Shown in pieces: positions 2,294 through 25,187 of a DNA stretch of 64,000 bases. This DNA comes from Rhynchopus sp. YZ270_cl-10 (taxonomy: Eukaryota), in contig OZ037846.1 in assembly GCA_964035575.1 (NCBI GenBank), forward strand, positions 1,116,001-1,180,000, in the 5' to 3' direction. The position numbers were made by a program, and so were the translations under genes. Numbering within the stretch: position 1 is the stretch's first letter; each line of letters begins with the position of its first letter. The notes beneath the pieces were generated by a model. It was not told where the DNA came from and searched no databases. It saw only the letters and a list, made by a program, of their open reading frames with translations.

Positions 2294-3983
2294 ACACAAC
2301 ATCAACAGCAGAAACGTGGTAGGTTATTGAAAAAAAAAACTATATACTGGGAGATGAGTTATTTTGATTCTTCCTATTTAACGGCGTTGCCAAAATTTTG
2401 TTAGCGTGTCTTTTATTCGTCTGTTTGTTTGCCTTTCCTTTTTTTGATTATTGTGCCAAAAAACCAGCGTAAACTGATGAGGATAAAACCCCCTGAACCT
2501 AGCGAACGACTTTTCTCGATTCAAAAAAAACCACCCCCCCTCGGTTTGGGGTCTCATCCGGGTAGTTGACCTGACAGAGTGATGGTGTGGGAAGACGTTG
2601 CAACATTCCACGAAATGGCGAAGGGTGTATAGCTGCCCTGTACGTTAGAATAACGTTGTGTCGATATGTTGCACCCCCCTTTTGGGTGTGATCCGTTTAT
2701 GTTATTATCGTACACCTATTTACTCACTGCTTCCTTCCGAGACCTTGACTGTCTATCCTTTTCTTTTATTTTTTTTTTTTTCCTTTTTGCTAAAACGATG
2801 TGTGGCGCGCCCAAGTCGGCTTACTCCCATCTTGTAGTTGCATGTAAAATATAACGACCCCACTCCTTTTTAAAGATGTACCTGTGCACACGTGAGCCAC
2901 CTACGTCTTTAAGTGTTCATCTATGAACACACTGTTTACGGGCTGTGTTGTATTTCGCGTCAATTTTTCTTTTGTTTCAATCATCCCGAGGGGAACATTT
3001 AAAAGCCGAATGTGTCTCACCCCCGGTACAGCCCGGTACATGCCGGTCATTGTACCAAGGTACACTGTTCGAGAGGGCTTTGTATTTCAAGTCTTCTTTA
3101 AAGTAAATTTTTTGATGTCCACCAACCTTTTTTAAAGCCAGGTTCCTGATTCTCGCGCAAATTGGGGGGGAGAAAATAAAATGGGGGAAAAGAGAACGCT
3201 CCCCGAAATGCTTCGCTTGAGGACTGGTATCGTGTTTACACTTTTAACCACCTGCGTTCTGTTATTTTTGAAAAAAGGTGTCTATGTGGGTCTACGTGTT
3301 GCGCGCGTGTTTTGTGTTGTGTTTTTGCAGTGTTTTCCCCCACTGATGCACAGCGAGAGGCTTAGGATCATCTTCCCAACTTCCCCCTCTCCCTTTCCTG
3401 TGTGAATTTCACTTCTATTTGATCAAAAAATAAAATAAAATATCCCCCTTTCCTATGGTCACTGCCTGATTTTTAGTGTGCACCATTTCATGGGTGCCCT
3501 ACCCCTGGTGTACCCACCCCCCCAGCTGGGTGACGATGGCGATTGTAAAAAAAAAAGAAAACAAAAAGAATACACGGGGTCAGAAATTCGACAGGGGGTG
3601 ACCAGCATTGAGGCCTTACATCGTGCTGGATGAAGAAAAAAATTTCCCCCCTTACCCCCTCTACCCTATTTTATAGTCTAGGGGCCGACACTACTTTTTT
3701 TTTTACCTTTCTTTTAGCGTTTTTGGTTGACATAATATTGTGATGCCTGATACCAGATGTAAAATTTCTACTTTATTTTTACGGTACACTGTTCACGAGA
3801 GGGCTGTGTATTTGAGGCATATGAAGGCAACTTTTACTTTGTCCACACTGGTACGGCATCAAAAAAACACCCCGTAGGGAATTCCTCGGATCAGTCCACT
3901 ATCAGTACACTACAATCAAGCTTTCAATAAAAGGGAAACCATCCCACTGCCTTGAGTGGTATGTACCCTGCTGATGTAGAACA

Positions 3984-7287: not shown

Positions 7288-8268
7288 GTTCTCAGTAATG
7301 TCAAAAACACCACAATTTCATCTGAATTTGGGTTTTCAGACCTGAAAATGACCCATGTTTAAGAGTATGGGTTCATATTTTGTGAAAATTTAAGTCACTA
7401 AAAGTTTGTCCATTTTTCCGTATATCCCCCACCACAGCCTGGGATTGGCTCGGAAATGCCACAAAACACTGTTTTTTCGCCCCCTGGTAATGGAAAAAAA
7501 ATCCCCACGTAAAAAAAAAAATTTGCACCCCGATTTCAGATTTTTCAAAAATTTCCCCAAAATTAGCGACACCCCTGGAGGTACTGCCCTGTACACATCT
7601 CAGGGATGTCTGCAGGATAATATCAACTTCGCTTTGTTCATTTGCGGCTCTGGACACAACTTTTACTATTTTTTTTTTACTTCTCCCCTTAGATGCGGCG
7701 CCTGGACGGAATACCTTTTCGGGTTAAAGGGCAACTAAAGCATGGCGCTTAGGTTTTTTTGAAAGATTTTGCTTTTATTCTCGAGGTATTCCACTTGTAG
7801 TTTCTTTTTCCTTTGTGTATAAAAAAAAAGTGTGTCGAACCGCTGAGAGAGAGGCAACGGAGTTCAGCCCTTCTCCTGCCCTCTTCTTGTCTCGAATGTC
7901 CCATAGTCCCTGATACATGATCTTAAAACAGAACCCCACACCACCCCATTTTTTTTTTCTGGATATTTTTTGGGCATGGGCATGGGGGTGCTGCACAGTG
8001 CGTTTGGACGACCAATGGACTGTAGGGTGTGTGTCAGAGGCGTTTCAGTTCAGTCATTTCTATACTTCTGTACTTCATTGGTCTCGCTACGTAACCCCCT
8101 CTGACAATCACTCCCCCTGCCCCCCCTCCCCCGCCCCACCCCTGGCACCTTGGTTTCCCCTCCCCCCGCCCCCTGCCGCCTTGGTGTTTGTCAACCCCCC
8201 CCTACGTGGTGCGGCTTGTGAAGGGTCACTAGGAGTTCTTCCCCCCCGACACATATCGGCATCACAAA

Positions 8269-10167
8269 ATGTCTTCAAGCTTCGAGGAGCTGCTGAAGAA
8301 GGCCAAAGCCCTTAAGGCTAAGGCAAAATCCCCTCTCGTGCGCCAGAGGCTCCTCGAGATCTTGGGTTTACTCCTCGATCTCGCCTTTGACGACGAGGAC
8401 GCAGGCCCCGCCCCCGCCAAACGGCCAAGGTTGGAGCCGGCGCCAACCCCGCCCCCTACAACGAACATCACCAGCAACAGCACCAGCAACAACAACAACG
8501 ACGACGACAACGACAAGGGCATGGACGAGGCCGCCGCACCTACCTTACCGCCCAAAGCGAAAATGCAACAGAAGGAGAAGAAGAAGAAGAACGGCTGGCA
8601 GACCGTGAAGGGGCCGAAGAAGGGCACGCCCCATGCCACCAACGCGCAAAGACCGGCGGACGCTCCTACGCAGTCGCTCCTCCTACGCCAAGAGGACTGG
8701 GACATCCCGGTGAGGACGGCGCAGGACTTCGAAGACCCTACTCCACCTGCGAGTGGCGTGCTCCTCATCCCGAAGGACACCTCCGACGCCGGGCGGCACG
8801 AATGGGTTGAGCGTCTGAGGGGACTATCAGTGCTCGCCAAAAACAGCGGATTTGGGCTGGTATCATTCCGCCCACTGTCATCGAACCCGGAGCAGGAGCA
8901 GAAGCTGCCGATGCTCTTCAGCAAAGGCGGCGTGACGGTGTGCCGCGATGTGTACACGTGGTACACCGACGAGGTGAAGCCGAAGGTGAAGTTCGCCACC
9001 GTGGAGGTACAGGACTCCACCACAGTCATCCAGGCTGTGGTACGGAAGTCGGCCCTGAGCGCCGTTACGCAGAAGCTGCTGAACGACCTGAAGACGGCCG
9101 CCCCAGCTATGGCTGAGCTGGTGAAGAGAGCGACACTGCAGCTGGATGTGAAGACCCAACACAACAGGGTCTTCCACGTCACAACCTACAGTGACAGGAC
9201 CGAGGCGTCGGTACGCGTGCCGGTGGCGAAGAAGATGGAGCTACTGCGCAGTAGTGGGAGGTACGGGGTGTTCTGGCGGACCATCTCCTTTGTGAAAGGG
9301 GGATACCAGGAGCCCATCCTCTGGCTCAAGACCGAGGCGACGTTGAAGGAGGCCCTGCGGGTGCACGAGGTGGTGAAGAGCGACGGTGTAGTTTCGGCCG
9401 CCAAGCGGTATGGTTTGCGCATGGGCAGCGGTGACGACCTGGAGAGGTACCGGACGGCAGCAGGCAACTTGGCGTGCGAGCCCCGCGACACCTCGGGGTT
9501 GCTGTACGAAGTGCGTGGTGCCTCTCCCACAGAAGAGGCGGATGATGTGATGCGCTCGCTGCAGTCGTCGTGGCAGTGTGTCTCCCGCAAGTCGTACCGC
9601 ACGAAGGGGTCCCTGGTCCTCATTGTCGAGAGCGCGTCTGCCCCCCAGTGGCCGATCTTATGCAGGAGTAACAGGTCCTCTCTCCATATCACTGAGTGCA
9701 CCACGGACGCCTTGCGCCACAAGAAGAGCAAGGGCAAGACCTACGTTGGTGCAGTGAAGCGGCAGAAGGTGACCCTCTCGATGGAGGACTTCCCGGCGCT
9801 GAGCCCTGACCCCAGCAATGCGAGCAGGGGTGTGAAGCGTACTGCGACTGGTCAGCCTGCGCCTGCACCGACACCTGCAACAGCCGACGACCGCTCCCTC
9901 TTCAAGAGGGCGATAGACATGTTCTCCAGGTCCCCGGCCAGAGAGGAGATGGCTGAGGATGTGGAATTGCCTGATGCCGAATCTGAGGAGGGTGATAAGG
10001 AGGAGGTGCATGTGCATGCGTGGAACCAATCACACACAGTGGTGGTGCAGACAAAGGACGCCGCCTGCGCATGTTGTGCGACTAAAATTAAGCACAACCA
10101 CGGCGCCAACAAGTGCCCGGGTTGCGACGCGCTCATCTGTGCCACGTGCTTCGGCAACAGCCAGTGA
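8269..10167 (+). CDS. LINE ORF1 protein (632 aa): basic/low-complexity N-terminus, Cys-rich zinc-finger-like C-terminus
   Basis: Long ORF directly upstream of the APE-RT ORF; C-terminal H...CACC...CPGC...CATC. Confidence 0.75.
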   Translation: MSSSFEELLKKAKALKAKAKSPLVRQRLLEILGLLLDLAFDDEDAGPAPAKRPRLEPAPTPPPTTNITSNSTSNNNNDDDNDKGMDEAAAPTLPPKAKMQQKEKKKKNGWQTVKGPKKGTPHATNAQRPADAPTQSLLLRQEDWDIPVRTAQDFEDPTPPASGVLLIPKDTSDAGRHEWVERLRGLSVLAKNSGFGLVSFRPLSSNPEQEQKLPMLFSKGGVTVCRDVYTWYTDEVKPKVKFATVEVQDSTTVIQAVVRKSALSAVTQKLLNDLKTAAPAMAELVKRATLQLDVKTQHNRVFHVTTYSDRTEASVRVPVAKKMELLRSSGRYGVFWRTISFVKGGYQEPILWLKTEATLKEALRVHEVVKSDGVVSAAKRYGLRMGSGDDLERYRTAAGNLACEPRDTSGLLYEVRGASPTEEADDVMRSLQSSWQCVSRKSYRTKGSLVLIVESASAPQWPILCRSNRSSLHITECTTDALRHKKSKGKTYVGAVKRQKVTLSMEDFPALSPDPSNASRGVKRTATGQPAPAPTPATADDRSLFKRAIDMFSRSPAREEMAEDVELPDAESEEGDKEEVHVHAWNQSHTVVVQTKDAACACCATKIKHNHGANKCPGCDALICATCFGNSQ

Positions 10168-10203
10168 CTTGACCCCAAGCTCGTTAAGCATGTGACTACC
10201 ACC

Positions 10204-13200
10204 ATGCAACAATGTCTCCTCTCCGACGGAGACATCCACCCGCATCCTGGACCCAAGAAAGCCTCAAGCAAGACCGGCACGCAGCACAACATCCGCACAG
10301 CCGGCCCACCAGCAGCGAAGAAACAGCGCACTGCTGCCGCCAGCACAGGACCACCCGTGTCTGCCGTTCCCCCTACGAGCGAAGGTTGCATCACAGTCAC
10401 CACCTGCAACGTCACCTCCTACGCCAACCACGCTGCCTGCACGCTTGCGTTGAACAGCACAGTGCTCTGCCTGCAGGAAGTGAAGCTGACGGAAGAAGGT
10501 GCCCGCAGGATGGAAGCCGACCTCCCGCCTGTCTGGAAGCCACTTTGGGGCAGACCGCAGCCTGGATACATGCTTGCAGGTATACGTCACCCCACCATTG
10601 CGGAGAGGGGCGGTGTAGCCACACTAGTGCGCAGACCCACGAGCGCATTCCATGACAACACGTTGACCGACATCAACTTGTTCCAAGACAGGATTCAGCT
10701 CACGCGCTTGGCCCTGGGGGCGGGTGGTGTCTTCCTATACATCTTCAACGTGTACGCCCATTCAGGCTCTGAAGGAGGGAGGAAGAAGGATCGCGAGAAA
10801 CTTCTGCACTGCGTCCTCAACACCATGCCTAATGCTCTAGGGAAGGACGTGCCGGTGGTTGTGTGCGGTGACCTGAACACCTCTGCCTCTACGTCGTACA
10901 TCTTGCGGGAAGCGGTGAAGTCTGGGTGGACTGATGCTGCTGTGGTGCAGGCCCAAAGGCTTGGATGTGTCCCTCCTCCTCCAACCTTTATGCGACGCGA
11001 CTCAGATGGTACGCGGATTGACCACGTATTGCTGAATGAGGTGGCGGCCGCCGCCTTGTCTAGGTGTACGACGCACCACGTGGGAGTACCGCAGCACAGC
11101 GCTGTCACTGTGGAACTCTCCCTTGCAGCATTCGCACAACTAGTCTACCGATTTGTTGTACCGAAGGATCTGTCGATGGTGAAGCCTGACCTGAGTGTGC
11201 AGAGATCAGCACAATGCGCCGCTCTCCTGGCTGCGAAGGGCTTCCACGAAGCTGAAACACGTCTGGACGTACATGACATGTGGAATGCGGTGTCGCAGGC
11301 CAGTGAGGAGTATCTTCTTTTGTGTGCGAATGACGACGGCATCCCCACGAATCGTGGCCACCGTGGCCGTGGTGAGGTGAGGCAGCCGGTGCAGAAATCG
11401 ATCGCAGCTCCGACCACGAAGTACTCGACTGGTGCTGCCCCCCCTCGACAGGTGGAGTTGGCCCGCCTGGCTAACATGTCTCTCGAGCTCGAGATTCAAC
11501 TTAAAAGATTGGTGAATGGGGGGTTCACCGTGCTGGAGCACAAGACTCGCCGCCTGTGGGAATCGACACTCCGAAAATGCAAGGAGCTGCGTGTGCGTGA
11601 CCTATCTGTGGACGACCTTCCCCTGGGCATAGCAGAGCAGCTGACGCTAGCAGAGGACCTCCACACTACCTCTGCGTCTCTGGCGAGTGACCTGGGTAGG
11701 GACACCAGGACCTACAGGGAAAAGCAACAGAAGCTGAAGGCGGTACACAACTTTGACGTGGACCGAAAAAAGCTCACGGCCTTCTGCAGGGGCTCCCTAC
11801 CCGACGATCTGCTGGCTGTGGCTAGAAGAGACGGAACCCTGACGGCCAACGCGCAAGAGATGGATGCCATCCTCCAGGAAGAGTGGAAATCTGTGTTCCA
11901 GCTCTACCGCGAGTGTGCCGAGCCGGAATATGCTGATTTCGACGCTGTGTTTGGGAAGCATGTGACGAAGCACAACATGGATCTGCTCCCTCTCACTGGG
12001 GAAGACCTGGACCGCGTTCTGCAGAGTAAGAAGAAGTCTGGCGCATGTGGTGTCGATGGGTGGCGTATGGGTGAGCTGAAACGCCTTCCGATGGTCCTGC
12101 TGAACGCATTTGCCACAACGTTCAACGAGATCGAAGAATCCGGCACGTGGCCTGAAGCGTTGCTCACTGCGCTTGTGACGCTCACTCCCAAGGGAGAGGG
12201 AAAGGACCCGCTGGACCACCGCCCGATCACCGTGACGAGCAGTGTGTATAGGCTATGGGCTTCTGCACGCGTTCGGAACATCCAGAAGTGGCAAGAAACC
12301 TGGATACATAAGGACCAGCACGGCTTCCGCCCTCGCCACGGGGCCCACAACGTTCTGTTTGACATCTGCACACAGCTGGAAGACGCACTGTCTGGAGGAG
12401 AACCGCTGTACGGTCTGGCACTTGACTTTGCTAAATGCTTTGACCGTGTCCCCCAGAAGCTTACCCTCGAGCTCGCAGCACGACTTGGGCTACACCCCCG
12501 CATTCTGCAGCCGCTCCGCACCATGTACGAGCAACTGCAACGTAGGTTCCAGCTTCCACTTGGCGTAGGTACCTCGTTTAGAGTGACGAACGGCATCCTC
12601 CAAGGGTGCCCCATCAGCGTCGTAATGATTAATGCGCTGGTCGCGGTGCTGCTGAAGGACCTGGACAGCTGCAAGAACTCCTGCTCACGAGCGTACGCTG
12701 ACGACATCACCCTACTGTCACGGAAGTCGATGAACAGCTTAGAGCCATGCCTGCGCATTGTGGAGAGGTTCTGTGCCATCACCGGCATGAAACTTAACGA
12801 CACCAAAACCGTAGCATTTGGATCACGTGAGAACTTTACCAGCACTCTTGCCTCGAACACAGGACACAGATACAAAACACTGGTGAAGGTCAAGATCCTA
12901 GGGGTCTACCTCTACTGCTCGAAGCACTCTCGACGCTCCTCCCCTGATCGAGTCCGCAAGGCCATCGCAGCCCTACAACGCCTACGATGTATGCCGCTGG
13001 CGTTCTACCACAAGTATAGAATTGTGTCAGAATGCATCCTCCCGGGTGCGCTGTATGAGGTCCCGTACGCCCTGCCCTCGCAGTCTAGCTTGAAGGAACT
13101 CTCCACCGCCGTCAACACCTGCCTCTGGGGCAGTGACTATGGTACGCGCGCAGGCCTCGCAATACGCACGGTACTGTTGAAGAGCCATCGCACTGACCCG

Positions 13201-14556
13201 GCCGCCATCGTATGCAACCGGTCCATGAACGTTGTGCTTGACCACATAGCATTTGATGCAACACTGAGAGAACGATGCCTGTCGATACACAAGAGGTACA
13301 ACGCAGGAGGAGGTTGGGACTTCCGCCCCCACGGGCCGGTCGGCAACATGACCTCCACTAGCATACTGACAGGCGTGAGATGGTGTGACGACCTAACAAC
13401 CGTCACGGAGCTGTCAAGCGCCCCCGTGGAAGAAGAGAAGACACACGCCCTAGGTCTTCTCGCGCCAGGTGAACGACACCACGCCATTCGCGAAATCGTC
13501 CGACGACAGAAGTTCACAGATCTTGCCTTGGACAGACCGACTTACGACGGCGCTCAACACGGCGTCAACCTCGCCGACACCACGTACCTGCACGACCAAT
13601 TGCAGTGGTCCCACCCCCTGCTAGCTTACCGCCTCCGCCGTATCATCTGCGATGGGATACTCTACGCGCATCCTACGGTGCTGTGCCTATACGAGTCAAC
13701 AAAGAGAGGTGGCATACACCTCGAAGTGAATCAGTGCCCCTTATGCCTCACACCAACCTCCGGGCTGGCGAAGCACCTGCTGTGGACTTGCCCGCACACT
13801 GTATCTGCTAACGTGAAGGAAGCGCACCGCCCTCTCCTCGACAGGATCGGCCCGAACACCCCGAGTTGCCTGGCTATGCATGGCATAGCTCCCACGAACA
13901 CGCCCAAGCAAGTCGTCGTTGACACGCAGAGATACCTGCTGGACGTCACCACCGCAGTAGATGATCACCTGTCCTCGCGGACTACCACAGCGCCTGCACG
14001 CCACCCATGGCGTATGGACTTTGAAGTGTTCGATGCGCCCCCATACCAGGAGGCCATCTACCGGCAGCTCGCCCCTTTCTTTGGGAAGGACGATGATCCG
14101 AGATGCAAGCAGAAGCGCCACGAACTGAAGCGAATGCTCCAATGGGCCTCCTCCCTGAAATGGAGCACCGCCAACCTGCCTGTGACATGCGTGGAACTTG
14201 CCATTGACTTGGAAATTTTCCACAGGATCTACGTTCTCCGGCCAACCTCTAACATTAGAGAACGGGCCTCTGCCTTGCGCACATTGCTCAACAAGCTTCA
14301 CCGCCTGTGCAAAGCTCTTGGGATCCAAAACCCATTTCCCGCATCTGCCATCTCCTCCTCACGGGGCCTCCGGTCCATTGGCGCACCCGGACTTATAGGC
14401 TACGACCGTCGCCCAGTTTTTACGTACCCGCGCTACACTATGCACATGCTCGAACACGTCATCGTACGTGCCAAAATTACGAACTCCGGCTGGGGAAATG
14501 ACATCATCCCTGACAACAAACTTGTAGAAGCCAGCGCAGCTGAAGCTATGCGATAA
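10204..14556 (+). CDS. LINE ORF2: 2A-like motif, APE endonuclease, reverse transcriptase, C-terminal CCHC zinc finger
   Basis: APE motifs TCNVTS, LCLQEVK, NVYA, CGDLN, RIDHVL, PQHSAV; RT motifs RPITV, QHGFRP, LDFAKCFDRV, GILQGCPIS, YADDI; CPLC...HLLWTC. First ATG is at 10204, but the frame is open back to the ORF1 stop. Confidence 0.93.
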   Translation: MQQCLLSDGDIHPHPGPKKASSKTGTQHNIRTAGPPAAKKQRTAAASTGPPVSAVPPTSEGCITVTTCNVTSYANHAACTLALNSTVLCLQEVKLTEEGARRMEADLPPVWKPLWGRPQPGYMLAGIRHPTIAERGGVATLVRRPTSAFHDNTLTDINLFQDRIQLTRLALGAGGVFLYIFNVYAHSGSEGGRKKDREKLLHCVLNTMPNALGKDVPVVVCGDLNTSASTSYILREAVKSGWTDAAVVQAQRLGCVPPPPTFMRRDSDGTRIDHVLLNEVAAAALSRCTTHHVGVPQHSAVTVELSLAAFAQLVYRFVVPKDLSMVKPDLSVQRSAQCAALLAAKGFHEAETRLDVHDMWNAVSQASEEYLLLCANDDGIPTNRGHRGRGEVRQPVQKSIAAPTTKYSTGAAPPRQVELARLANMSLELEIQLKRLVNGGFTVLEHKTRRLWESTLRKCKELRVRDLSVDDLPLGIAEQLTLAEDLHTTSASLASDLGRDTRTYREKQQKLKAVHNFDVDRKKLTAFCRGSLPDDLLAVARRDGTLTANAQEMDAILQEEWKSVFQLYRECAEPEYADFDAVFGKHVTKHNMDLLPLTGEDLDRVLQSKKKSGACGVDGWRMGELKRLPMVLLNAFATTFNEIEESGTWPEALLTALVTLTPKGEGKDPLDHRPITVTSSVYRLWASARVRNIQKWQETWIHKDQHGFRPRHGAHNVLFDICTQLEDALSGGEPLYGLALDFAKCFDRVPQKLTLELAARLGLHPRILQPLRTMYEQLQRRFQLPLGVGTSFRVTNGILQGCPISVVMINALVAVLLKDLDSCKNSCSRAYADDITLLSRKSMNSLEPCLRIVERFCAITGMKLNDTKTVAFGSRENFTSTLASNTGHRYKTLVKVKILGVYLYCSKHSRRSSPDRVRKAIAALQRLRCMPLAFYHKYRIVSECILPGALYEVPYALPSQSSLKELSTAVNTCLWGSDYGTRAGLAIRTVLLKSHRTDPAAIVCNRSMNVVLDHIAFDATLRERCLSIHKRYNAGGGWDFRPHGPVGNMTSTSILTGVRWCDDLTTVTELSSAPVEEEKTHALGLLAPGERHHAIREIVRRQKFTDLALDRPTYDGAQHGVNLADTTYLHDQLQWSHPLLAYRLRRIICDGILYAHPTVLCLYESTKRGGIHLEVNQCPLCLTPTSGLAKHLLWTCPHTVSANVKEAHRPLLDRIGPNTPSCLAMHGIAPTNTPKQVVVDTQRYLLDVTTAVDDHLSSRTTTAPARHPWRMDFEVFDAPPYQEAIYRQLAPFFGKDDDPRCKQKRHELKRMLQWASSLKWSTANLPVTCVELAIDLEIFHRIYVLRPTSNIRERASALRTLLNKLHRLCKALGIQNPFPASAISSSRGLRSIGAPGLIGYDRRPVFTYPRYTMHMLEHVIVRAKITNSGWGNDIIPDNKLVEASAAEAMR

Positions 14557-14566
14557 CGAATATGAT

Positions 14567-14601
14567 AAGGTGACTAAGCACGAGAGGCTTAGGATCATCT
14601 T
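14567..14601 (+). other. 3'-terminal stem-loop of the LINE (dispersed motif)
   Basis: AAGGTGA-CTAAGC-acgagag-GCTTAG-ga-TCATCTT; CTAAGC/GCTTAG pair perfectly and the outer stem has one G.U pair; 10 nt after the ORF2 stop. Confidence 0.75.
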
Positions 14602-14659
14602 ATAAACTTTTCTTTCTATTTGTTTCTCCGGGAAAGTGCTTGACATGATTTTCCATATA

Positions 14660-15099
14660 CCGTCTTTTGAAAAATTATGGACCAGAAAAATAGGTCCATA
14701 AAAAAAAAAAATCCCAAAAAGTCCATAATTGTTCTGGTCCATCATTGTTCTGGTCCATGTTATTTCTGGTCCATCTGTGTTAGGCTTTTTTTTTTTTGAA
14801 CTTGTCCATTTTCAGACCCATTCCGAGCTTTCGGTACCGCACGTTGGCGGGGCATCTCGGCTTATATGTGGCCCGGTAGACCCATTCCGAGCTTTCTCCC
14901 CACACAAGCGGTCGTCGCACGCGCTTCGCGCGCGCGACTCCCTGTCAAAATTCTGGACAAGTACAAAAAAACCCCACACATATGTCGGACCAGAAAAATA
15001 GGTCCATAAAAAAAAAAAATCCCAAAAGGTCCATGATTGTTCTGGTCCATCATTATTCTGGTCCATGTTATTTCTGGTCCATATTTTTTCAAAAGACGG
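14660..15099. mobile_element. Tc1/mariner-type MITE with TA TSD
   Basis: TIR CCGTCTTTTGAAAAA..ATGGACCAGAAA / TTTCTGGTCCAT..TTTTTCAAAAGACGG flanked by TA on both sides; internal ttctggtccat repeats. Confidence 0.85.
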
Positions 15100-15233: not shown

Positions 15234-17680
15234 ATGCGTGCCTTCACACTGCTGGCTGCTGCCAGCTGTGCCCTGGCTGTGTCCAACCCTGAGGAGTACG
15301 TCGACATCATCGCTGGAGCGAAGGGCATCTTCCAGATGAGCAGGGGCAGTCTTCTCCCGCTGGTCAGCACCCCGTGGGGGTTCAACGGGTGGAGCGCGTT
15401 CACGAACGTCGACGACAGCCAGTGGTGGTGGAACAACGACCAGCGCAACTTCGTGGGCATTCGGTGCACCCACCGGCCGAGCCCGTGGATCAGCGACTGG
15501 GGACACTTCACGTTCCTCCCGATGATGGTTGGGGGCGCTAACACCGGGTACTCGAGCACCAACACATACCAGATCTACGACCCGAACAGCAAGACCAGTG
15601 TGTGGAAGCCGTACCACTTTGCGACCGAGCTGCCGTCCTCCGGCAACGAGAACGGTGTGCTGCGTCTGGAGCTTGCGCCAAGCAACCACGCTGCCGTGAC
15701 ACGTGTCGTGTACCCGACCGTGAGCAAGGTGCCCTCTCCACACTTCAACGAGACGCGTGTCCTGCGCTGGAGGCTGCCGTCCTACACAGACACACTCAAG
15801 TTCGAGCAGATCGGTGGCGTGCTGAGGGCGTCCGGCTACGTCATGTCGAGCGACCTCAAGACCTTCGTCGTGATTGAGGTGGAGACCGAGGCCACATTGT
15901 TCTCGACACACTTCAGCTCCGAGCTGGGTATGTGCACGTTTGTGTTGTATTTTGTTCATTTTATTGTGGCAATGGGAGTGAGGAATTGAGTATTGTGTTA
16001 GAAGTGTATAGGAATGAAGGAACTTCAAGCAATATTGTCAACACACCCATCACAGGTTACGCGATCTACGACACGGACGGAGATGAGTTCATCATCAAGA
16101 TGGCAACGTCGCTGATCTCTGAGGACCAGGCATGGCACAACCTGAAGTCGCAGGTCGGTTCGCTGACCTTCGACGAGGCACGTGCCAAGGCAAAGGCAGA
16201 GTGGAACGCCGTGCTCTCCCGTGTGGCAGTGACGCCGATTGCAGACGAAGAGGACAACCTCAAGGTCTTCTACTCGTCGTTCTACCGTGCGTCGCAGTTC
16301 CCACGCTTCACGTCCGAGTACGACGTGAACGGGAAGGAAGTGCACTTCTCCACGTACGCACCTGTCTCTGAGCGCAGGGCTGTGTACCGCAGTGGTGACC
16401 ACAGCTCGCTTGTCAAGGATGGAGTGCTTGTCACAGACAGTGGCTTCTGGGATGCGTACCGCACTGTGTACCCGTGGCTGTCGGTCACACACACTGATGT
16501 GCTGGGACGCATGGTGCAGGGATGGGTGAACGCGTACGAGGAGGGTGGCTGGCTGCCGAAGTGGGCCTCTGGCAGTGGCTACATCAACAGCATGGTGAGC
16601 ACGATGGGTGACTGCGTTCTGGCGGACGCGATTGTGAACGACATTGGCGGCTTCAACGTGTCTGGCGCCTACGCCGCGATCTTGAAGGACGCCTACAAGG
16701 TGAGCGACGTTGGACACGGCAGGGGCCGCGAGGCACTCTCGACGTACATGAAGAAGGGCTACATCCCGCACGGCAACAGGGAGGACGTGTCTGTGTCGCT
16801 CAACTTCTACCTTGCAGACTACTCGATTGCGCAGGCCGCCATCAAGCTTGGCGACACGAAGGCTGCCAACGAGCTTCTCGAGCGCTCTGCACAGTACACC
16901 ACACTGCTCCACGACGACGGGTTCATGCGTTCGAAGGACACACACGGCAACTGGATGGAGGGCTTCGACCAGTACGCATGGGGCGACTCGTACACAGAGT
17001 CTGGACCGTGGCAGTACCGTTTCTACGTCCCACACGACCCTAAGGGACTTGCTGTGGAGTACATGAAGCGTGGCATTGATATGTGCGAACGTCTGCAGCA
17101 CGCCATGACTGGGCCCGCCTCTGTGCACCAGGGTGGATACGGCTCCATCATCCACGAGATGACTGAGATGTCTGACAACTGCTGGGGCCAGTACGCACAC
17201 AACAACCAACCCGTGCACCACATGCTCTACATGTTCGGAGGAATGTCCGACCGTCTGAACGACACCTGCGCACAGCGTGGACAGTACTGGCTCCGCAAGG
17301 CCGTCACCGAGCTGTATCTCCCTAAGGCGGAAATGTTCTCTGGTGACGAGGACAACGGTGAGATGGCGTCATGGTACCTGCTCAGCTCGATTGGGCTGTA
17401 CTGGCTTGCGCCTGGGTCGGGCAAGGTGAGCCTGGGTATGCCGCTGTTCCGTGAGGTCACCATCACACTCAACAACGGACGCAACCTCACTGTCACAAGC
17501 AACGAGCAGCGCAGCTCCTCCAAGACCATGTGGCACCGTGACGACGACGAGACTTTCCCTGCTGTGCACTACGTGAAGTTCAACAACGTCTTCATCTCTG
17601 GCACCACCATTGACTACCAGACACTCATGCTGGGAGGCAGGCTTGAGTTCTTCATCAAGCAGTACCAAAAGGACTGGTAG
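15234..17680 (+). CDS. GH92 alpha-mannosidase (likely alpha-1,2), copy 2, secreted; exons 15234..15927 and 16056..17680
   Basis: Signal-peptide-like MRAFTLLAAASCALA; LPLVSTPWGFNGW, THRPSPW, GFWDAYRT, IIHEM, QYAHNNQP, GDEDNGEMASW; intron GTATGT(15928)...CACAG(16055) restores the frame. Confidence 0.92.
15928..16055 (+). other. GT-AG spliceosomal intron (128 nt) in GH92 copy 2
   Basis: Same phase and position as in copy 1; last ~35 nt almost identical to the copy 1 intron. Confidence 0.85.
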
Positions 17681-21815: not shown

Positions 21816-24800
21816 CAGGGTCCTCAACCGTAGACAAAGTCTGGCCACAGATTTGTCTAAGTTAAAAAAAAAGGCTAAAAAAAAATTTTCGCGCTCCGCG
21901 CGAAAAGGTCCTGTACAAAGCTAAAAATTGGGGGCTTTTTTTTTTTGTGTTGCTTTTTCGAAACTCGTTAAGTGGTCTTTTCATTTCAATAGAAGAGTTC
22001 GACAAATGAACAATCACACCCCACCCCACCCCTTCGCCCCACCCGTACCCCTAACCCCATTGTCCCCCCAACCTGATAAGCATCACACAGAAACTCTAAC
22101 CTTCTTTCTTTTAAAGGCTTCAAAAATCCTTTGGATTTGGTCAGGCGTAAATTTATTCTCATTTGTCTCTGCCTGTTTGCACATAAGAATGCATAGCAGA
22201 CTTGAATCCAGCAGTTTGTTTCTGTAGCTATTCTTGACGTACTTCATGCCGTTGAAGCAGCGCTCGTCTTCAACTGATGTGACGGGGATTGACAACCCAA
22301 GCAAAACAAGATCCCTCATAATGGGGTAGGCGTCTCCTGCGGAACTTGTCAAGAATGTTGCGATCAGGTCCGAAGTGTCCTTTGTTGTAGTTCTCTTCGA
22401 CAAAACGTCCACCAGGATCCTCCATTCTTTCACAGCTACAGCTTTCTTTGTCTCCAGACTGTTCAGTTCTGGCGACTCCTCAACGAACGGCGTCGTGTCC
22501 ACGCTCAGTAACGGCGTTGTTTGAGTGCGCGATATCACAGTATGCTCCGTCTTGGAGTACTCTGGTCTCCCACGCGTCTTCTCGCCCACAACATCGTACT
22601 TTTTGTACTCGAGTGTATGCAGCTCAGTAAATTCCTCGATGAGCTTCTTCACCTCGGTGTTGCCGTAGATCGCCAGCCCGTCCGCGTTAGCAGGGAGGTT
22701 GCGGATGTCGAATACTGAGAAGCATCTCACAATGTCCATGTTCACGAATCGTTCACTGAGGCACTTCAGCAGCTCCTTGAGGTATGGCTTGCAGACCGTG
22801 TCGTGATGAATCGCAAAGTTCCGACGGGAAAGTTTTGTACCGTGGCATTGATTATACCTCGGTACCCATTCTGGGTAGAACGGGAACATGTTCGGGTTGG
22901 TTTCAAGCAACGACAATGACGCAACACATTTGTCGATGTGGCTGCAAACGGTGAGCAGGTTTGTGTTCCTGCTCTGGAGCGACGTCGACAGCACGTTCAA
23001 CTCGTCCAGGACCACCGTCATGAAGGACAACGTTGCAAAAAAACCGGGCTCTTTGATGTGCTGCGCGATGAACGGTGCTTCCACGTCGCCGGCCTCTCCA
23101 AGCTTGCACAGGGCGCTGTGCACGGCGGGGTACTCCTTGCGGACGGTGCTGCAACACCTGCCGTTGGTGAGCCACCGGGTGTCACCCGGCTTTGCGATGA
23201 GGATGTCACAGTACTCACACAAGTCGCGAAGTTCCTCCAGCATCTCCTCCAGGGTGTCGAGCTTAATCTTGGATCCCGAAAAAAAAACCCACACCCACCG
23301 CAGGCCGTCGAAGAACCGGGTAATCTCCGGCGATTTCCCCTCTGCCGCTGCTTCTGGGCCACAGAGTGCGAGGGAGTGTGCGTAGCACCAGGTGAAGAGG
23401 GCGCCTGGGTTTATGTCTGCACGGATTTGTTGTTGGCAGCCCTTGTTCGAGGAACGCATTGCCGATGCGCCATCAAACGAGCATCCACTCATCTTCCCGT
23501 AGTCGAGCCCGAGCTGGTCTATCCACTTCGTCAGCAACGATGCGTAACCAGCCCCCGTCTGGTCCTTCAGCTCACCCATCATGATGAGCTTCTCGACGGG
23601 GGTGGCACCGACCATGTATCGCACGACGAAGACGAGTTGCTCCTTCTTGCTGACGTCGCGTGAGCAATCCCCCGACAGGCCCCAGAAACGGGAGGCTTTG
23701 ACCTGCTTGAGGAGGTCTTCTGTCAACACCTCCGTGATGCAGGACATGATCTCTAAGACTGCACCGCAGCTGAGATAGCGTATTTGTTGTCTGAGGTATG
23801 CCTCCATGTCGGTGCACTCCAGCTTGTCTGCGAAAAAACTCAGAAACTCCTCCAAGTTAGAGTGCCCTACACCTTTGCGCGCGAGGAAAACAATAACCTC
23901 AATGCATATTTTCAGCATTTTTTGGTTGAACTCGACTTCTTTGTCGCTGTTGGCGTGCAACGTGTGAAGCACGGTTCCATTGGAAGCCTGCAGAGCGGCA
24001 GCCTTCACGAGACGTTGGTGTTTGGGGTCGCCTGCATGCGCAGGGAGGTCTCTGGCGAGCTTGGTCTTTGCATGAGAGAAAGCACCACAATACAAGCACT
24101 TGAACTTGTCTTCACCCACCACCAACCAGGGGGAAAAACGGTTCAAATGGCCCTGCACCGTGCTCTCCCGCAGACCCATACAACCTTTCTCCTGCGCTTC
24201 GCGTTTACGTTTCAGCGTGTTGGTGGAGTCGGTGTTCGCTGGTGCGGTCGTGGTGTTCGTGAGGTTGGGATTGTTCGTGTTGGAGTGCGTGGGACCTAAG
24301 AAGACAACATCGCCGTCAGAAGAGTACTCGTCGACATCATCGATTTCCATTGCTGCCTCGGGTTGCTCGGATGCTGCGTTGCGTCTCACTGGCACACATT
24401 GCTCCTCCTCCTCTTCTTCGGACGTTGAATCCACGTACTTAACAGCACTCACCTGTGGAGCCATCATCACCACACGTTTCTTCACCTTCTTGCCTTGCGA
24501 CACCTGGCTCTGCACAGACACGGCAGAGGCATCGCTGTCTCCCCCCTTCTCTGCTTCGTTCATGGCGAACTCATGCGCCTCCGCAACGATCGTCAGGATC
24601 GTCTTCCGCTTGCTCCCCTCCCTGTCGTCGTCCGCCAGTTTGGCGCGATCAAACTCCTTCAACCAGAGTTTGAGCACCTTGTTGGTGTCGTTCTGGTGGT
24701 TTTTAAACCCCCTCACCGTCCCCTCCGCCACAAGAAAAAGGTGAAGGGAAGCGAGCCGGGGTGTCGGACCATCGGGGATGGACTTGTACTTGCCTGAAGA

Positions 24801-25187
24801 CCACAGGTCGTAGTGCGTATCCCCTTTGTTGGGTTCCACCACACGTACCACAGGTGCCGCAACAGCTCCCTTCTTGAACATGGACACGATGGTGGGCTGT
24901 GCTTTGGAGGTCTTGGCAGTGGCAGGCATTTTTGCGGATGAGTTTGTTCAATTGTAGTTAGTCTGAGGAGGTGGCTTGTGTGGGTGGGTACAATGGGGTC
25001 CGCGCAGGTGAGGACTGAGGGAGTCTTGAGGGAACTCATTTTTTTTTTTTGTTTTCAGTAAAGCTTCTTCTCTTTCAAACCACCCAAAAACCCAAAACCC
25101 AGGTTTTGTCTAACTTAGACAAAGCGTTTTTCAAAAAAAAAAAAATTGTCTAAGTTAAGGCCTAACTTAGACAGGTTGAGGACCCTG
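21816..25187 (-). mobile_element. Complete, probably autonomous hAT DNA transposon (3372 bp)
   Basis: TIR CAGGGTCCTCAACC / GGTTGAGGACCCTG; perfect 8-bp TSD TGGAGATT (21808-21815, 25188-25195); subterminal TTGTCTAAGTTA repeats at both ends; intact transposase ORF. Confidence 0.95.
22083..24929 (-). CDS. hAT transposase (948 aa; DUF4371/ZMYM1-like type)
   Basis: Zinc finger PWL...CLYC...H...H; GDCSRDVSKKEQL (D), FDGASAM (D), CYAH (CxxH), TRW, SIPVTSVEDERCF (E, dimerization region). Confidence 0.92.
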   Translation of the reverse strand: MPATAKTSKAQPTIVSMFKKGAVAAPVVRVVEPNKGDTHYDLWSSGKYKSIPDGPTPRLASLHLFLVAEGTVRGFKNHQNDTNKVLKLWLKEFDRAKLADDDREGSKRKTILTIVAEAHEFAMNEAEKGGDSDASAVSVQSQVSQGKKVKKRVVMMAPQVSAVKYVDSTSEEEEEEQCVPVRRNAASEQPEAAMEIDDVDEYSSDGDVVFLGPTHSNTNNPNLTNTTTAPANTDSTNTLKRKREAQEKGCMGLRESTVQGHLNRFSPWLVVGEDKFKCLYCGAFSHAKTKLARDLPAHAGDPKHQRLVKAAALQASNGTVLHTLHANSDKEVEFNQKMLKICIEVIVFLARKGVGHSNLEEFLSFFADKLECTDMEAYLRQQIRYLSCGAVLEIMSCITEVLTEDLLKQVKASRFWGLSGDCSRDVSKKEQLVFVVRYMVGATPVEKLIMMGELKDQTGAGYASLLTKWIDQLGLDYGKMSGCSFDGASAMRSSNKGCQQQIRADINPGALFTWCYAHSLALCGPEAAAEGKSPEITRFFDGLRWVWVFFSGSKIKLDTLEEMLEELRDLCEYCDILIAKPGDTRWLTNGRCCSTVRKEYPAVHSALCKLGEAGDVEAPFIAQHIKEPGFFATLSFMTVVLDELNVLSTSLQSRNTNLLTVCSHIDKCVASLSLLETNPNMFPFYPEWVPRYNQCHGTKLSRRNFAIHHDTVCKPYLKELLKCLSERFVNMDIVRCFSVFDIRNLPANADGLAIYGNTEVKKLIEEFTELHTLEYKKYDVVGEKTRGRPEYSKTEHTVISRTQTTPLLSVDTTPFVEESPELNSLETKKAVAVKEWRILVDVLSKRTTTKDTSDLIATFLTSSAGDAYPIMRDLVLLGLSIPVTSVEDERCFNGMKYVKNSYRNKLLDSSLLCILMCKQAETNENKFTPDQIQRIFEAFKRKKVRVSV

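Follow-up and report, generated by a model that had tools for sequence, protein, structure and literature searches.

How the second open reading frame (ORF2) is translated from the bicistronic mRNA of long interspersed nuclear elements (LINEs) is a long-open question (PMC3894237, PMC5009743). In L1Tc/Ingi elements and in CR1-26_BF, CR1-53_BF and CR1-1_LG, which are LINEs with an APE endonuclease, a 2A-like peptide is located just N-terminal of the APE domain of ORF2 (PMC3708506, PMC3894237), as the first-pass annotation of the DNA studied here had stated for L1Tc/Ingi and other LINEs, and in the ORF1p-2A-ORF2p polyproteins of Cordylochernes scorpioides such a peptide lies between ORF1p and ORF2p (bioRxiv 2026.06.17.732966). 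Both placements recur in a LINE found in a 64,000-nt stretch of Rhynchopus sp. YZ270_cl-10 (GenBank assembly GCA_964035575.1, contig OZ037846.1, positions 1,116,001 to 1,180,000 of the forward strand), hereafter the window, to the first letter of which all coordinates refer. However, the LINEs with a 2A before the APE, established for L1Tc/Ingi and many others, mostly lack ORF1, and a single ORF is a feature of the Ingi/L1Tc clade (PMC3708506), whereas the window LINE has a full ORF1 (632 aa, with 38 homologues) ending in frame 28 codons before the predicted skip site, and so does not share that feature. It further differs from the 2A-bearing APE LINEs in its core, DIHPHPGP, and in having one subfamily without a visible AUG. 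The C. scorpioides polyprotein is annotated as continuous, while in the window LINE a fixed stop precedes the 2A-like motif. For the two-ORF cases CR1-26_BF, CR1-53_BF and CR1-1_LG, the accessible text of PMC3708506 and PMC3894237 describes no in-frame stop.

Related designs are known from viruses and from other LINEs. In alphavirus UGA-CUA and in murine leukemia virus (MuLV) gag-pol readthrough, a single in-frame stop separates an abundant protein from a polymerase, with UGA-C as here (PMC3159437, PMC13517186). The window element differs from these viral sites in its UGA-CUU context, in that no conserved 3′ stem was seen in its lineage, and in having putative StopGo release instead of a protease. 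Human L1 and SART1 have a bicistronic mRNA with a similarly short spacer, the AUG being dispensable in L1 and a 3′ structure contributing in SART1 (PMC5972666, PMC11485995), but neither has a 2A, whereas the window LINE lacks a stop-start overlap and has a spacer that appears conserved as protein. In cardioviruses, StopGo is followed nearby by −1 frameshifting, so that two recoding events likewise fall within a few dozen codons, although the order is reversed and the second event is a different one (PMC5009743). A full-text literature search, covering mostly papers outside subscription and these in part, found no description of readthrough in a LINE, alone or with 2A, and the accessible portions of PMC10161547 and its supplement yielded no treatment of these LINE junctions. 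We regard the junction as a real, conserved variant of the known LINE 2A and readthrough designs, and propose a mechanism for it.

ORF1 ends at a fixed in-frame UGA-C

The element has an ORF1, an ORF2 with domains for APE and for reverse transcriptase (RT) and multiple dispersed copies, as non-LTR retrotransposons of the APE type typically have, and its closest named RT relatives come from Diplonema species (about 45-56% identity), so that the host is probably a diplonemid. A first search with the APE domain returned a single near-identical protein. ORF1 starts at ATG 8269 and runs to CAG TGA (10162-10167), followed by CTT GAC. As the first-pass annotation had described, ORF1 and ORF2 share one frame and are separated by a single in-frame TGA-C; past the stop, the ORF2 frame reads LDPKLVKHVTTTMQQCLLSDGDIHPHPG-P, with exactly 28 codons between the stop and the final Pro (10252-10254), and it stays open for 1462 codons.

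Copies of the element were compared through contigs of sequencing runs, which drop rare variants, and through protein clusters. Seven runs were aligned, six of which, from three studies, cover the stop. The sense codon in other copies for which the first-pass annotation advised looking did not turn up: no alternative letter was found at 10165-10167 in any of the six covering runs, and all four members of the ORF1 cluster end at this stop. Frame-breaking indels in the spacer were likewise absent, its 28-codon length being kept in a second subfamily. The exact 632-aa ORF1 occurs on eight contigs, possibly as copies within the window's own assembly. Among the 38 ORF1 homologues, 20 (one of them the window's own cluster) have a complete C-terminal zinc finger, and all of these end 0-29 residues past it, 18 within 10 residues. 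Because the TGA is fixed in all copies and both subfamilies, and ORF1 homologues end at the same landmark, it is the normal end of ORF1 in this family and not a private mutation. In having one in-frame UGA with C after it, fixed across the family, the junction resembles type II readthrough sites.

Where a protein links ORF1 to APE or RT, it is a D. papillatum gene model that skips the end of the finger; a contiguous natural ORF1-spacer-ORF2 fusion was not found among relatives of the window family. Run contigs show no joint across the stop, which carries no weight on expression or splicing, and scans for relatives in viral contigs were empty.

The spacer is kept in two subfamilies

Besides the window version (subfamily A), the run contigs contain a second version (subfamily B) that makes up about 40-50% of the summed depth. 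The depth of a 41-nt contig spanning 10132-10172 equals that of A and B together (1600 versus 925+630 in run X1 and 2000 versus 1076+760 in run X4), and therefore both subfamilies share CAG TGA CTT GA. Past this block 22 letters of B align without gaps and 7 of them differ from A; the next 14 B codons come from two loose ends that overlap, and B then rejoins A at HPHPGP. The B spacer is thus in frame and, like that of A, 28 codons long; its letters at 10173-10194 (7 codons) are unread and may hold an ATG.

In the 14 readable codons, third positions differ between A and B in 11 and second positions in 3 (Fisher p 0.007, from by-eye counts). Six spacer residues are identical, every one of them through different codons, and two of these lie upstream of the position of the AUG in A. 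Judged by these codon comparisons, the spacer shows coding-type, that is protein-level, conservation. Further downstream (10330-10587), 12 of the 14 codons changed between A and B are synonymous.

The 41-nt identity around the stop was also considered as proof of a nucleotide signal, and this was rejected, as A and B share other identical blocks.

A 2A-like motif precedes the endonuclease

Counting all six frames, the window has 28 PGP triplets, of which only that of DIHPHPGP fits a relaxed 2A core. It departs from the class A core (D/G/C/N)(V/I)ExNPG-P in having His at both p14 and p16. By contrast, Gly at p11 and the upstream hexapeptide CLLSDG agree with class A in a by-eye comparison with the motifs of PMC12846837, whose upstream motifs include LLLLSG-like and DLTxDG-like ones that CLLSDG resembles. 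Among 42 relatives having the APE N-terminus, 18 carry a 2A-like motif just upstream of APE, in the forms ExNPGP, HPNPGP, HPHPGP and GEAxxPGP at the same place; among the remaining 24 are several that start at the APE or come from spliced models, and some with an OTU domain in that position. Judging by this recurrence, the window motif is one of a conserved 2A-like series at a domain boundary. Among natural peptides, those with a single such His, at p14 or p16, reach about 90% StopGo activity (PMC12846837). The reading of the 28 codons as a 2A unit, put forward in the first-pass annotation, thus finds support in the conserved position of the motif and in the activity of each odd His elsewhere, but not in the class A core itself.

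Relatives without a 2A (P0026, P0045, P0048, P0066, P0085 and P0077) have an OTU-type or other papain-like-looking domain just before APE; it is identified as OTU (PF02338) in P0048, P0066 and P0085 and looks similar by eye in P0026 and P0045. In such OTU-bearing relatives a protease domain may replace the skip. Tandem 2A-like motifs, 80-280 residues apart, precede APE in P0036, P0050, P0088 and L125, some with a hydrophobic stretch between them, and (R)VGEAxxPGP occupies the 2A position in a side branch (P0071, P0076, P0080, P0101 and L126). Loci L125-L129 come from short contigs within prokaryote metagenome-assembled genomes and are probably eukaryotic contamination. In another locus (L054), GDIHPHPGP has on one side a frame open over 830 codons or more and on the other a protein that by eye resembles a tyrosine recombinase.

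A distant LINE family with a parallel layout

A motif scan gave 124 loci, taken from the matches listed (for metagenomes 120 of about 420, 80 with full flanks), and the following counts refer to these. The HPH form occurs in 35 loci, the ORF1 of the window family in none, and most of the other loci are unrelated elements, chance matches or too short to judge. In viral contigs the scan gave four loci, in none of which the ORF1 or APE of the family was present. The layout of the window is shown by three decayed copies of a LINE (L056, L057 and L083): a homologous ORF1 end in frame, TGA, 30, 30 and 31 codons to the Pro, and then APE. The spacers of L056 and L057 contain no Met. In a fourth lineage, represented by the P0210 protein cluster, ORF1s end at one point and a 30-codon spacer starts with His and has no Met; one protein of the cluster has Trp at the stop, which may be a TGA called as Trp or a mutant copy. 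By RT this cluster is distant, although its ORF1 matches the ORF1 profile (E 5e-8). The base after the stop is C in the window, L056, L083 and the P0210 lineage (from the His codon) and A in L057.

For a quick RT tree, 99 rows were thinned to 64 after six (including P0088) had been dropped for short RT cover; it has no named reference elements, and its long branches meet at the parallel family, for which reason we claim only that this family is distant. Our guess, made partly from the OTU-bearing ORF1, is that L056, L057 and L083 are dinoflagellate elements.

A candidate route to ORF2: readthrough followed by StopGo

With confidence a little short of even, we propose that ORF2p is made by readthrough of the fixed UGA-C plus StopGo at the 2A-like motif. 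Most ribosomes would terminate at the UGA and release the 632-aa ORF1p, while a small share would read through it and translate the 28-codon spacer; at the 2A-like motif the Gly-Pro bond would then be skipped, giving a free endonuclease-RT that starts at Pro. The minority products of the same mRNA would be ORF1p extended by 29 residues and an ORF2p starting PKKASSK, and readthrough would set the ORF1p:ORF2p ratio. We favour this route because it explains together the shared frame, the TGA-C, a coding spacer that begins at the stop, a dispensable AUG and the hairpin of the parallel family. That hairpin begins 5-6 nt after the TGA in L056 and L057 (z −3.5 and −3.0); known readthrough sites have a 3′ stem 7-12 nt past the stop (PMC3159437). 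Of its 30 cells in the two sequences 27 pair, with 2 double-sided and 4 one-sided changes, compared with 25-37% in slid controls. In the window element, the 90 nt at the stop fold best among 70 windows along the element (z −4.2; two windows in ORF1 reach −3.6 and −3.3).

Several observations weigh against this route. Type II readthrough contexts are UGA-CUA or UGA-CGG (PMC3159437), and the codon after the window stop is CUU, CTA being found only in L083. In the window the hairpins lie further from the stop than the stems of known sites, beginning about 20 and 45 nt beyond it; the two subfamilies part from +6 onwards, and by eye the letters of B disrupt the second hairpin. Known readthrough sites with a structure are conserved at synonymous positions on the 3′ side of the stop, unlike A versus B. 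The pairing of L056 with L057 was not significant in a shuffle control (136/500; two sequences), and L083 has no hairpin after its stop. The identity of A and B at the stop is one of several identical blocks, that at 10426-10583 (158 nt) being longer, and may reflect exchange between the subfamilies; it is not independent support. The in-frame layout was seen in only 3 of the 124 motif loci.

The skip itself meets similar objections. In P2A and F2A no substitution of N16 passed the threshold, and E14H was tolerated only in P2A, not in F2A (bioRxiv 2026.09.24.754024); in class B, His is weaker than Asn (PMC12338488). The double-His core was not found in the accessible main texts of PMC12846837, PMC12338488 and the two preprints. 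In addition, subfamily B has Ser at p12 of the core.

Other relatives appear to enter ORF2 differently. In the D. japonicum relative P0060 the ORF2 frame is open far upstream, and back-translation permits HxHxW and the six finger Cys to lie in frame +1, where a stop becomes possible no earlier than 28 codons ahead of the Pro; some finger appeared in 31 of 300 shuffles, and the profile score was 17.8 against a null maximum of 16.9. In L125 an ORF1-like frame overlaps an AUG-less 2A frame out of frame (a single copy, broken further on and possibly decayed). If these two layouts are out of frame as they appear, they cannot be readthrough; no canonical slippery site was seen by eye in either. For the sister of the window element in the quick tree (P0004, 98%) the called start lies 29 codons ahead of the Pro, exactly where the window has its TGA, called starts in P0088 and P0080 lie 28 and 30 codons before the Pro, and three D. 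ambulator ORF2s (P0006, P0007 and P0059) have long open leaders. What stays constant seems to be a stretch of some 28-30 residues with the 2A at its end, whereas the way into it seems to vary. Since the skip would yield the same N-terminus whichever way the ribosome came, members of the clade seem free to differ in their entry route. Leaky readthrough with 2A release, as first suggested for this junction, came through the comparison of copies for sense codons and indels, but it is not distinguishable here from AUG-independent restart, its context is UGA-CUU, and two relatives seem to be out of frame.

If the readthrough-StopGo route is real, it would be a tandem recoding design that we have not found described for LINEs, would explain ORF2 calls that start inside the endonuclease in this clade, and would add a double-His core to the known 2A repertoire. 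A wider and more tentative proposal is that a widespread group of protist LINEs uses gag-pol-like programmed readthrough of the ORF1 stop, with a skip 28-31 codons further on replacing the protease. The cassette would then have been kept in two distant families, the 2A would let the junction switch between in-frame and out-of-frame entry, and OTU-type domains would stand in for the 2A in other branches.

Alternative routes to ORF2

The main alternative, serious but rather unlikely, is that ribosomes terminate at the TGA and a few resume translation there or immediately past it independently of AUG, in the way suggested for human L1, with the 2A again freeing a Pro-started ORF2p. The distance of 28-31 codons from stop to 2A is kept even where the frames seem to differ (P0060), and starts are called at −28 to −30 in P0004, P0088 and P0080. 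L1 ORF2 is translated independently of AUG (PMC11485995, PMC5009743), SART1 coupling also needs a 3′ structure (PMC5972666, PMC10275272), and no readthrough structure is conserved between A and B. However, restart needs neither a shared frame nor TGA-C, and yet the in-frame TGA is present in all four short-spacer lineages seen as DNA (window, L056, L057 and L083). Moreover, the nearest in-frame ATG is 12 codons past the stop and absent in B, so that there is no stop-start overlap of the SART1 type, and no AUG, CUG, GUG or UUG occurs in frame within the first eight codons after the window stop. The junction is compact (90 nt) and intact; one of its two natural versions has the AUG and the other lacks it, and a distant family offers a parallel.

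It is improbable that readthrough is combined with poor skipping or with stalling at HPH, so that mainly an ORF1-ORF2 fusion or a lowered output of ORF2p results. Such an outcome would be in line with the double departure from DxExNPGP in A and the Ser at p12 in B, with the finding that 2A-like peptides from retrotransposons mostly reduced the amount of protein made, many of them instead of skipping (bioRxiv 2026.06.17.732966) and with a share of only 7.4% highly active 2As among those of retroelements (bioRxiv 2026.09.24.754024). Nevertheless, relatives have either HP[NH]PGP or ExNPGP at the same place, HPHPGP is retained in both subfamilies, and no relative of the window family shows the contiguous fusion.

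Initiation of ORF2 at AUG 10204, by reinitiation or from a separate mRNA trans-spliced to a spliced leader, with the 2A trimming a 16-residue leader, appears more improbable still. The ATG stands in a strong context (ACCACC-ATG-C) in subfamily A, gene callers use it for A-type ORF2 on six contigs, and Euglenozoa add spliced leaders to their mRNAs (PMC10161547). On the other hand, B has AAT at this position and an A-type copy (P0145) has Lys, an out-of-frame ATG-TGA at 10190 comes earlier, and 16 residues are short for StopGo (PMC12846837). The window's cluster also contains a second ORF2 type, taken to be B, for which the called start is a Met within the endonuclease. In relatives, whose ORF2 starts are gene-caller predictions, the APE profile matches 64 of 102 RT relatives, 18 of the 64 being called from inside APE, and in four D. 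papillatum families the called starts fall at APE profile positions 37, 106, 155 and 52-67 (among the 15 members listed per cluster). Going by these calls, the clade often seems to lack an AUG ahead of the enzyme. The role of reinitiation start that the first-pass annotation allowed for ATG 10204 is accordingly weakened, as the position is AAT in B and Lys in P0145 and most clade members have no start called ahead of the APE.

A cis-spliced mRNA that removes the stop and joins ORF1 to ORF2 is very improbable. Several D. papillatum gene models do join ORF1 to APE across the end of the finger, some at one repeated point, but they cut the conserved finger, their joints differ in other copies and they may be predictor artefacts, spurious introns near repeats being warned of in PMC10161547; splicing would also not predict selection for an unbroken in-frame spacer. 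Finally, a once continuous ORF interrupted by a private nonsense mutation at the TGA can practically be dismissed, given that the stop is fixed in all copies of both subfamilies and ORF1 homologues end at the same landmark, with the ambiguous Trp of the P0210 cluster as the one point in its favour.

Other features of the element and the window

Features of the element are collected in Table 1. The ORF1 zinc finger is presumably C1-like, going by its pattern. A fold prediction for ORF1p gave weak RRM-like matches only, and Foldseek gave no match at E≤0.001. The 5′ end of the LINE is undefined, with neither a target-site duplication nor a poly(A) boundary seen. The C-rich 5′ region at 8140-8235 bears what we take to be a loose likeness to the 5′ hallmark of L1Tc/Ingi (Pr77/HDV-like ribozyme); Rfam gave no match at E≤1 within 7300-15000. 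Loose ends of run contigs at 10207 and 9762 point to truncated copies starting there.

Table 1. Positions of features of the LINE in the window.
Feature	Position	Strand	Remarks
ORF1, 632 aa	8269..10167	+	38 homologues; ends at TGA
ORF1 C-terminal zinc finger, HxH..CxxC..CxxC..CxxC	10009..10149	+	six Cys invariant in 15 aligned homologues
In-frame TGA + CTTGA	10165..10172	+	within the 41-nt block 10132-10172 common to subfamilies A and B
Spacer (putative 2A-like unit), 28 codons	10168..10251	+	matched in length and frame by subfamily B, which differs mainly at third codon positions
ORF2 frame, stop to stop, intact	10168..14556	+	1462 codons; TAA at 14554-14556
Two predicted hairpins 3′ of the stop, subfamily A	10188..10235	+	z −3.6 for 10160-10249; second disrupted in B by eye
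In-frame ATG, subfamily A (window)	10204..10206	+	strong context; AAT in B, Lys in A-type copy P0145
CLLSDG and core DIHPHPG-P	10213..10254	+	predicted skip between Gly 10249-51 and Pro 10252-54
APE endonuclease	10387..11064	+	Pfam PF03372, residues 98-299; first strand beginning near residue 74
Reverse transcriptase, YADD motif	12211..12840	+	Pfam PF00078, residues 682-891
3′-terminal hairpin	14565..14603	+	z −5.4; resembled by pieces of 29-58 nt elsewhere in the window (7 places)

Pieces of 29-58 nt similar to the 3′-terminal hairpin lie at 3354, 20056, 26265, 33838, 38703, 45486 and 51944, with unrelated DNA upstream. We propose that these recurring pieces are extremely 5′-truncated insertions or tails of short partner elements. 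In view of a GA bulge in this hairpin, selenocysteine at the UGA was considered and rejected, as the bulge differs in other copies. The stem is also much shorter than that of a selenocysteine insertion sequence (SECIS).

The LINE is flanked by two copies of a glycoside hydrolase 92 gene (440-2293 and 15878-17680). Further downstream, a tandem array of DOMON-ferric reductase genes, one long and four shorter, spans 27673-55539 and contains arrays of a 10-nt satellite near 44.3-45.2 kb and 50.8-51.7 kb. An intact hAT transposase is encoded on the minus strand at 22083-24947.

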